Assembly (NCBI RefSeq): GCF_003334305.1
Contig: NZ_QOWS01000083.1
Length of the DNA: 345 bases
From: Escherichia coli
GTDB taxonomy: Bacteria; Pseudomonadota; Gammaproteobacteria; Enterobacterales; Enterobacteriaceae
Direction: 5' to 3' (one strand)
The position numbers were made by a program, and so were the translations under genes. A model generated the notes under the pieces. The model was not told where the DNA came from, ran no database searches, and saw nothing but the letters and a program-made list of their open reading frames with translations. This document shows, in pieces, positions 1 through 345 of the stretch (positions within the stretch are counted from its first letter, which is position 1; each line of letters begins with the position of its first letter).

Positions 1-183
1 TCACGCCTGAAGGGAAAGCTGCACGTTATCAGCAAGCGTTACACTCAGCGCATTGAGCGACATAATCTGAATCTGAGACAACATCTGGCAAGGCTGGGAC
101 GGAAGTTACTGTCGTTCTCAAAATCGGTGGAGTTGCATGACAAGGTCATCGGGCATTATCTGAACATAAAACACTATCAGTAA
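1..183 (+). CDS. insB: IS1 transposase InsB (InsAB' C-terminal part), 3' partial: last 60 codons plus stop
   Basis: Frame 1 is open from position 1 to TAA at 181-183. Manual translation: [60 protein letters not shown]. The ...[23 protein letters not shown] tail matches the IS1 InsB C-terminus as I recall it. The 5' end lies outside the window. Confidence 0.88.
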
Positions 184-198
184 GTTGGAGTCATTACC
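176..198 (+). repeat. IS1 terminal inverted repeat (about 23 bp), overlapping the insB stop codon
   Basis: ATCAGTAAGTTGGAGTCATTACC is the reverse complement of the IS1 end consensus GGTAATGACTCCAACTTA(T/C)TGAT. In IS1 the insB stop lies inside the terminal repeat (established knowledge). Exact repeat length is from memory. Confidence 0.75.
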
Positions 199-268
199 TC
201 CTCCCGAACTCAAAGCTATCATACAGATAATTACTGGTTAACCCTATATAGGGCATTTTAAAGTGTTG
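199..268. other. 70-bp AT-rich non-coding spacer between the IS1 end and the IS3 end; origin unidentified
   Basis: No ORF of meaningful length on either strand. Sequence TCCTCCCGAACTCAAAGCTATCATACAGATAATTACTGGTTAACCCTATATAGGGCATTTTAAAGTGTTG matches neither IS terminus as I recall them. Confidence 0.6.
236..253. repeat. Two overlapping perfect palindromes: GGTTAACC (236-243) and CCCTATATAGGG (242-253)
   Basis: Seen directly: GGTTAACC and CCCTATATAGGG each equal their own reverse complement. Function unknown; could be a protein-binding dyad or coincidental. Confidence 0.5.
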
Positions 269-307
269 TGATCTTACCCAGCAATAGTGGACACGCGGCT
301 AAGTGAG
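269..307 (+). repeat. IS3 left terminal inverted repeat (IRL), approximate extent
   Basis: IS3 has imperfect terminal inverted repeats of roughly 39-40 bp (established knowledge). The inner boundary cannot be confirmed without the right end, so the end coordinate is approximate. Confidence 0.55.
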
Positions 308-320
308 TAAACTCTCAGTC

Positions 321-328
321 AGAGGTGA
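321..328 (+). promoter_or_regulatory. Shine-Dalgarno / ribosome-binding site for IS3 orfA
   Basis: AGAGGTGA contains GAGG at 322-325, 8 nt upstream of the ATG at 334, which is suitable spacing. Confidence 0.55.
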
Positions 329-333
329 CTCAC

Positions 334-345
334 ATGACAAAAACA
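334..345 (+). CDS. insE: IS3 OrfA (transposase N-terminal DNA-binding subunit), 5' partial: first 4 codons only, M-T-K-T
   Basis: ATG ACA AAA ACA directly follows the SD. IS3 OrfA begins MTKT... as I recall, and the K-12 gene name for IS3 orfA is insE. Only 12 nt are inside the window, so the call rests on the IS3 context rather than on the ORF itself. Confidence 0.75.

Follow-up and report, generated by a model that had tools for sequence, protein, structure and literature searches.

A probably passive junction of IS1F, an omptin gene relic and IS3 upstream of IS3 orfA in Escherichia coli

Introduction

The junction promoter (Pjunc) of IS3-family elements such as IS911 and IS2 is assembled on the excised circle, where a −35 box in the right inverted repeat (IRR) is joined to a −10 box in the left inverted repeat (IRL); in the literature examined, no such promoter is described for IS3 itself. 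In IS10 and IS50, fold-back inhibition shields the ribosome-binding site from outside transcription. The promoter of IS1 is weak and repressed by InsA, the translation of InsB depends on a rare frameshift and IS1 insertions show a classic polarity that is Rho-dependent. Structure-based repression over the ribosome-binding site has also been described for IS200 (PMC4513863). IS1 carries an outward-facing −35 hexamer in its inverted repeat (PMC8764528), and fusion promoters form when the flanking DNA offers a −10 box at a suitable spacing (Prentki et al., 1986, as related in PMC9330008 and PMC8764528). A native promoter of IS3, P3L, has been located in the left end of the element (PMC8860574), and a 150 bp IS3 left end containing the previously characterised promoter gave undetectable activity in a reporter (PMC12095673).

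The window analysed here is a 345 bp stretch of Escherichia coli DNA next to fecIRABCDE–ykiE. It is made up of three pieces, namely an IS1F right end (1–198), a relic of an omptin gene (199–268) and an IS3 left end (from 269 onwards), with both IS1F and IS3 reading on the + strand.

Results and discussion

The first-pass annotation had placed an IS1 right end and an AT-rich spacer upstream of IS3 orfA in a shared orientation, and the element ends and the existing gene annotation agree with this layout. The description of the spacer stands in part: its GC content of 0.37 is below the 0.45–0.46 of the flanks, but it is an antisense piece of an omptin gene and not anonymous DNA.

Window positions 1–198 are 100% identical to the IS1F of K-12, the annotated last base of the K-12 element falling on position 198, and comprise the 3′ part of the insB7 pseudogene on the + strand. 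Both marks of an IS1 right end are present: the terminal inverted repeat ...GAGTCATTACC at the tip, and an insB frame that closes about 15 bp before it, the natural TAA stop codon of insB being at 181–183 (+ strand) according to the annotation and to reading of the frame. An alignment with IS1A also extends to the terminal ...CATTACC, with 17 differences in 198 bases (∼91% identity) and with the last 18 bases the same. RefSeq labels the IS1F gene as 'IS1-like element IS1F family transposase; internal stop'. The in-frame TAG that makes insB7 a pseudogene lies some 28 nt before the start of the window (7971–7973 in the coordinates of L001, the larger locus that includes it), a point missing from the first-pass annotation. 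The fec-adjacent IS1F of K-12 (insA7/insB7, b4294/b4576) has the same sequence, the same insB7 pseudogene and the same left neighbours, fecI–ykiE. The two loci differ to the right of IS1F, where K-12 continues into the yjhU side with neither the omptin relic nor IS3.

The 70 bp spacer (199–268, − strand) was identified through its identity to omptin coding sequences as an internal relic of an ompT-like outer-membrane protease gene. It shares 68 of 71 bases (95.8%) with annotated omptin genes on IncF plasmids, the match being in frame and in the interior of the gene, and in the omptin frame it translates as QHFKMPYIGLTSNYLYDSFEFGR. Of the three pieces of the junction this one is unique, IS1 and IS3 being multicopy. 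Part of it is covered by an ORF at 194–256, which RefSeq lists as a 20-residue 'hypothetical protein' (WP_113705808.1); judged by this identity, that product is a piece of the omptin relic.

IS3 starts at position 269 (TGATCTTACCC...), and its tip, TGATCTTACCCAGCAATAGTGG, is the same as in the annotated K-12 copies IS3B, IS3C, IS3D and IS3E. From the K-12 tips and a comparison of the two IS3 ends in L001, the IRL was placed at 269–307 on the + strand; it begins TGATC..., with a GATC site at 270–273, is about 39 bp long and matches the IRR. A Shine–Dalgarno sequence, GAGGTG (322–327, + strand), precedes the orfA start codon, ATG (334–336), which is at IS3 position 66, and the annotation of the intact IS3 shows a frameshifted transposase. 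All of the elements are known members of IS1 (isoform IS1F), IS3 and the omptin family, both insertion sequences being already in the RefSeq annotation. Positions 176–345 are probably no more than the place where three of them meet: a defective IS1F tip, an antisense omptin leftover and an intact IS3 left end.

The window and L001 7190–8700 were scanned for σ70 consensus promoters with a threshold of at least nine matches out of 12. Two sites were found in the window, against 0.4 ± 0.6 in shuffled sequences, and both are within IS1F (38–66 on the + strand and 91–62 on the − strand). No + strand site reached 9/12 in 176–345, in agreement with the first-pass annotation, which had noticed no convincing σ70 pair there by eye. 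The site at 38–66, GTTACA-17-CATAAT (9/12, + strand), is a candidate source of read-through only; its IS1A counterpart, GATATA...CATAAC, matches at 6/12.

Weaker pairs were ranked with a position weight matrix (PWM), a simple log-odds model whose consensus frequencies follow promoter compilations in the literature and were left unfitted, so that scores in bits are on an approximate scale. The best + strand pair with a −10 box in 176–333 is TTACCT (194–199)-17-TATCAT (217–222), with 8/12 matches and 9.4 bits. Its −35 hexamer consists of the IS1 tip plus the first base of the relic, while the −10 hexamer is within the relic. If this hybrid promoter were active, transcripts would run from around 229–231 into IS3. 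The spacing is optimal and the score is close to those that weak promoters obtain with this matrix (lacP1, 10.2; bla P3, 9.6; J23105, 9.2; with lacUV5 at 14.4), and there is precedent for fusion promoters that combine an IS1 end with a −10 box in the adjoining DNA (PMC9330008, PMC8764528). However, among first-order Markov sequences matched in length and composition, 24% contain a pair of at least 9.4 bits, the match is under the 9/12 threshold of the consensus scan, there is no extended −10, the −35 hexamer differs in position from the outward −35 known for IS1 and any transcript starting near 229–231 would still carry the complete leader hairpin described below. In the four K-12 IS3 copies, which lie in unrelated contexts and were each taken with 119 bp of upstream DNA plus the leader, the best scores were 8.65, 6.5, 5.2 and 6.9 bits; with 9.4 bits the window nominally leads these five contexts without standing out from them. 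Activity of this pair appears improbable, and the suggestion that a hybrid or fortuitous promoter drives orfA is not supported, its best candidate being at chance level.

The hexamer TTGGAG (185–190, + strand) in the IS1 end is presumably the known outward −35 of IS1. As in the IS1 fusion promoters, an IS1 end carrying this hexamer is joined to foreign DNA ahead of a gene that reads in the same direction. Here, in contrast, the sequence 15–19 bp downstream (206–215, gaactcaaag) contains no −10-like hexamer, so that TTGGAG was rejected as a partner in a hybrid promoter, and the sole 8/12 pair makes use of a −35 that spans the IS1 tip and scores at chance level. The arrangement also recalls Pjunc, in that the sequence directly upstream of the IRL could offer a −35 box to a −10 box in the IRL. 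It differs in that the upstream DNA is the omptin relic and not an IRR; combinations of −35 hexamers in the relic with the −10-like hexamers of the IRL (AGCAAT and AATAGT) were rejected as weak, with 7/12 matches and 4–4.8 bits.

On the − strand, the IRL and the relic together contribute a further hybrid candidate directed towards IS1F, TTGCTG (IRL)-18-TAAAAT (relic) at 255–284, with 8/12 matches overall, 5/6 in the −10 box, and 8.85 bits by the PWM. An active promoter here would yield RNA in the sense of the relic and of the 20-residue ORF and antisense both to insB and to any read-through RNA, which it would damp. For the IS3 left end, −35 boxes that already exist on the bottom strand are reported to become promoters when given a −10 (Table 1, hotspots 12 and 13, of PMC12095673). 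The score is nevertheless at chance level, and the wild-type 150 bp IS3 left end, which was tested without the relic flank, was inactive on both strands (PMC12095673). An active promoter at this position seems very unlikely.

Within the IS3 left end itself, the best candidate for a weak native promoter is TAGTGG-17-TAAACT (285–313, + strand), with 6/12 matches and 4.5 bits by the PWM; its assignment as the native promoter is tentative. The weakness of this candidate fits both the location of P3L in the left end (PMC8860574) and the undetectable reporter activity (PMC12095673).

The leader of orfA is predicted to fold into a hairpin (303–333, + strand; −12.6 kcal mol−1) formed by GUGAGU/ACUCAC and CUCU/AGAG. 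The 5′ arm is at the inner edge of the IRL, and the pairing involves part of the Shine–Dalgarno sequence as well as the nucleotides leading to the AUG. The hairpin was the centroid structure in each folded construct that contained 303–333, and the centroid agreed with the minimum free-energy structure; compared with shuffled sequences the stability is marginal (z = −1.55, with 17 of 200 shuffles equally good). In a set of eight divergent left ends of IS3-like elements on plasmids, the pairing is maintained through G–U changes only, and no compensatory pairs occur among these eight relatives, which are too similar to inform a covariation test. A native transcript from the candidate at 285–313 would start around position 320, inside the hairpin, and would lack the 5′ arm. 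In a manner resembling IS10, IS50 and IS200, the IS3 repeat is predicted to pair with the Shine–Dalgarno region and outside transcripts would carry both arms, so that by analogy the hairpin would cover the ribosome-binding site in RNA arriving from upstream. In contrast to those systems, the IS3 hairpin is a prediction, with a z score of −1.55 and no covariation.

No intrinsic terminator, taken as a GC-rich stem of at least 5 bp with a U-run behind it, was found in the window or on either strand of L001 7190–8700. A strong terminator between 183 and 334 would have spoken against read-through into IS3, which the first-pass annotation had proposed, and no such terminator was found. The palindrome CCCTATATAGGG (242–253), followed by CATTTTA, can form a hairpin (242–260, + strand), but was rejected as a terminator, since the stem has 4 bp, the predicted energy is −4.5 kcal mol−1, four U follow it and it is no better than shuffled sequences (z = 0.02). 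The RNA fold of 176–345 as a whole is likewise no better than shuffled sequences (z = +0.25), and an Rfam scan of the window returned no match at E values of up to 1.

Read-through from the ykiE/IS1F side is therefore physically possible. Three + strand promoter-like sites with 9/12 matches lie upstream of orfA, at L001 7224–7259 (ykiE side), 7438–7465 and 8038–8066, the last being the site at 38–66 in the window. The site at 7438–7465 is inside the IS1 left end, the known location of the IS1 promoter, and from the first two sites to orfA there is 1.1 kb free of any intrinsic terminator. Transcription from the ykiE region, from the IS1F promoter or from the site at 38–66 might then measurably raise the level of orfA/orfAB mRNA and the transposition of IS3 in strains with an intact copy. 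The absence of an intrinsic terminator from the + strand of L001 7190–8700 and the three upstream sites favour this proposal, and given that the native IS3 promoter was undetectable in a reporter (PMC12095673), even small inputs could matter.

Several features weigh against such an effect. The RNA ahead of orfA is untranslated for at least 360 nt because of the premature TAG in insB7, the lack of + strand ORFs of at least 20 residues in the window and the stop codons at 181, 259 and 304 in the frame that insB and orfA have in common. (These three stops also led us to reject a translational fusion or coupling of insB and orfA, despite the common frame.) This ribosome-free RNA is rich in C and poor in G over 131–278: the C/G ratio is 1.2–2.0 in 78 nt sliding windows starting at 131–201, stays above 1 for those starting at 131–211 and peaks at 2.0 over 171–248. 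Rho favours RNA of such a composition when it is untranslated over some 80 nt or more, and from the base composition Rho-dependent termination over 131–278 is plausible. The polarity of IS1 is itself Rho-dependent, InsA represses the IS1 promoter, and the predicted Shine–Dalgarno hairpin would form in long transcripts. A measurable rise through read-through is accordingly considered unlikely, and the feeding of IS3 orfA from upstream is probably small.

The place occupied by the window (at least 80% covered) is found in 2066 of 5426 complete E. coli genomes (∼38%), and a probe spanning the junction (190–280) matched 2065 genomes. A 401 bp probe that extends 250 bp into IS3 distinguishes intact from remnant IS3. 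With this probe, an intact annotated IS3 is present in about 27 records, with at least 98.3% identity (strains ATCC 43896 and 504838 have this intact arrangement), and a remnant form in about 1670 records (at least 80% coverage), with 93.3% identity, BL21 being among them; the type strain ATCC 11775 has the same decayed IS3. BL21(DE3) and ATCC 11775 do not differ from the window over positions 1–334. In the remnant, the orfA start codon is changed from ATG to AAG, indels are present, IS3 positions 239–1133 are deleted and the right tip is lost. It is also a mosaic, with IS3 positions 1–66 identical (66/66) and the rest at ∼84%. IS3 is thus a dead remnant in ∼98% of the genomes that have the junction, which further counts against read-through having a role, in that the layout would not have been selected for the feeding of IS3. 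The intact form is followed by at least three different downstream contexts.

The flanks of the two elements in L001 bear no target duplications. For IS1F, a duplication of about 9 bp is missing (ggggatttc on the left and tcctcccga on the right), and by these flanks the element marks a site of rearrangement rather than a simple insertion. For IS3, the 3 bp duplication is missing (ttg before the IRL and ata after the IRR), a mismatch compatible with recombination of one IS3 copy with another. The lack of target duplications, the preponderance of dead IS3, the variable downstream DNA and the mosaic remnant together suggest that the arrangement marks a rearrangement scar, left by IS-mediated deletions and IS3–IS3 recombination and not by selection for expression.

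Conclusions

We favour, as the probable reading, an inert junction in which orfA is driven by its own weak left-end promoter. Positions 176–345 would then be devoid of any dedicated regulatory element, having neither a σ70 promoter better than chance nor an intrinsic terminator, and IS3 orfA would most likely be served, like that of other IS3 copies, by the very weak left-end promoter of the element. RNA entering from the ykiE/IS1F side could reach orfA, but would be expected to add little OrfA, because it would originate from a weak, InsA-repressed IS1 promoter, would be untranslated and plausibly subject to Rho action and would contain both arms of the predicted leader hairpin.

There is a slight chance that, in the ∼27 strains with an intact IS3, the TTACCT-17-TATCAT pair or read-through from ykiE/IS1F is active and turns this IS3 into a 'master copy' that produces more transposase; if so, this would explain the several downstream contexts at IS3. 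The mechanisms considered here (IS fusion promoters, junction promoters and read-through into insertion sequences) are well known and nothing in the locus is new in kind. Upstream transcription, if it did raise IS3 expression, would be one more case of the known context-dependent activity of insertion sequences and would matter little. For annotation, the value of the comparison is that the spacer can be described as an omptin pseudogene fragment rather than as a 20-residue 'hypothetical protein'. The fec–IS1F–relic–IS3 junction appears to be an old and widely inherited scar, which may be used as a marker of lineage and rearrangement in E. coli.

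No target-site duplication was found at either element adjoining the fec module: the 9 bp expected of IS1F are absent when positions 7424–7441 of the source locus are compared with 8190–8207, and the 3 bp expected of the intact IS3 are absent when 8266–8271 are compared with 9524–9529. Escherichia coli K-12 carries the same IS1F, with wholly different DNA to its right (the yjhU side). The missing duplications and the different K-12 flank together indicate that IS1F and the intact IS3 both stand, at the fec module's edge, on junctions left by deletion or recombination.

The commonest version of the locus, found in ATCC 11775, BL21 and ∼1670 other records, carries a dead IS3 remnant (positions 8269–8620 of the ATCC 11775 locus). 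This remnant is a sharp mosaic, in which IS3 positions 1–66, comprising the left inverted repeat (IRL) and leader, are 100% identical to the active element, while identity is ∼84% from the start codon onwards and the start codon itself is changed from ATG to AAG. Past this point there are indels, an internal deletion of IS3 positions 239–1133 and loss of the right tip. A live IS3 could have produced such a mosaic by recombining with the remnant or converting it; alternatively, constraint acting on the leader could account for it. The fecIRA-ykiE-IS1F-relic-intact IS3 arrangement also occurs in two small circular 'plasmid' records (NZ_CP021680.1, 23.3 kb; NZ_CP060942.1, 21.1 kb), which also hold chromosomal-type genes, namely a BCCT transporter and a DUF2254 protein. 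Each record may represent a circle that was excised, an amplicon generated by IS activity or an artefact of assembly.

RefSeq/PGAP annotates a 20-residue 'hypothetical protein' (WP_113705808.1, MPYIGLTSNYLYDSFEFGRR) on the minus strand at window positions 194–256 (8194–8256 of the source locus) and in hundreds of genomes. This reading frame is simply part of the relic left by the omptin pseudogene, continuing into the IS1 tip, and is very likely to be a spurious gene call. The relic has its intact relative in an omptin gene on conjugative IncF plasmids (positions 2197–3150 of the plasmid locus; ∼690 plasmid matches), where its neighbours are an hlyF-like gene (SDR oxidoreductase) and mig-14; this setting suggests a common origin for the fec-side chromosomal relic and the ColV-type plasmid omptin.

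Within IS1F, insB7 is interrupted by a premature stop (TGG to TAG relative to IS1A; 7965–7980 of the source locus, ∼28 nt 5′ of the window), directly followed by an in-frame ATG (GTA TAG ATG ACG). Judged from sequence, re-initiation there could in principle yield a 69-residue C-terminal InsB fragment ending at window position 183; no obvious Shine–Dalgarno sequence for this ATG was seen. A promoter-like site (GTTACA-17-CATAAT, 9/12 consensus matches) lies on the plus strand at window positions 38–66 and owes its score to IS1F-specific substitutions, IS1A having GATATA...CATAAC (6/12) there; if active, it would produce an untranslated RNA that leaves IS1F in the direction of IS3. A candidate hybrid promoter that faces outward (TTGCTG-18-TAAAAT, 8/12, 8.85 bits on an approximate σ70 matrix) lies on the minus strand at window positions 255–284, with TTGCTG in the IRL of IS3 and TAAAAT in the relic. 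Its transcript would be antisense to insB, and the candidate may bear on the −35 boxes awaiting a −10 that have been reported for the bottom strand at the left end of IS3 (PMC12095673).
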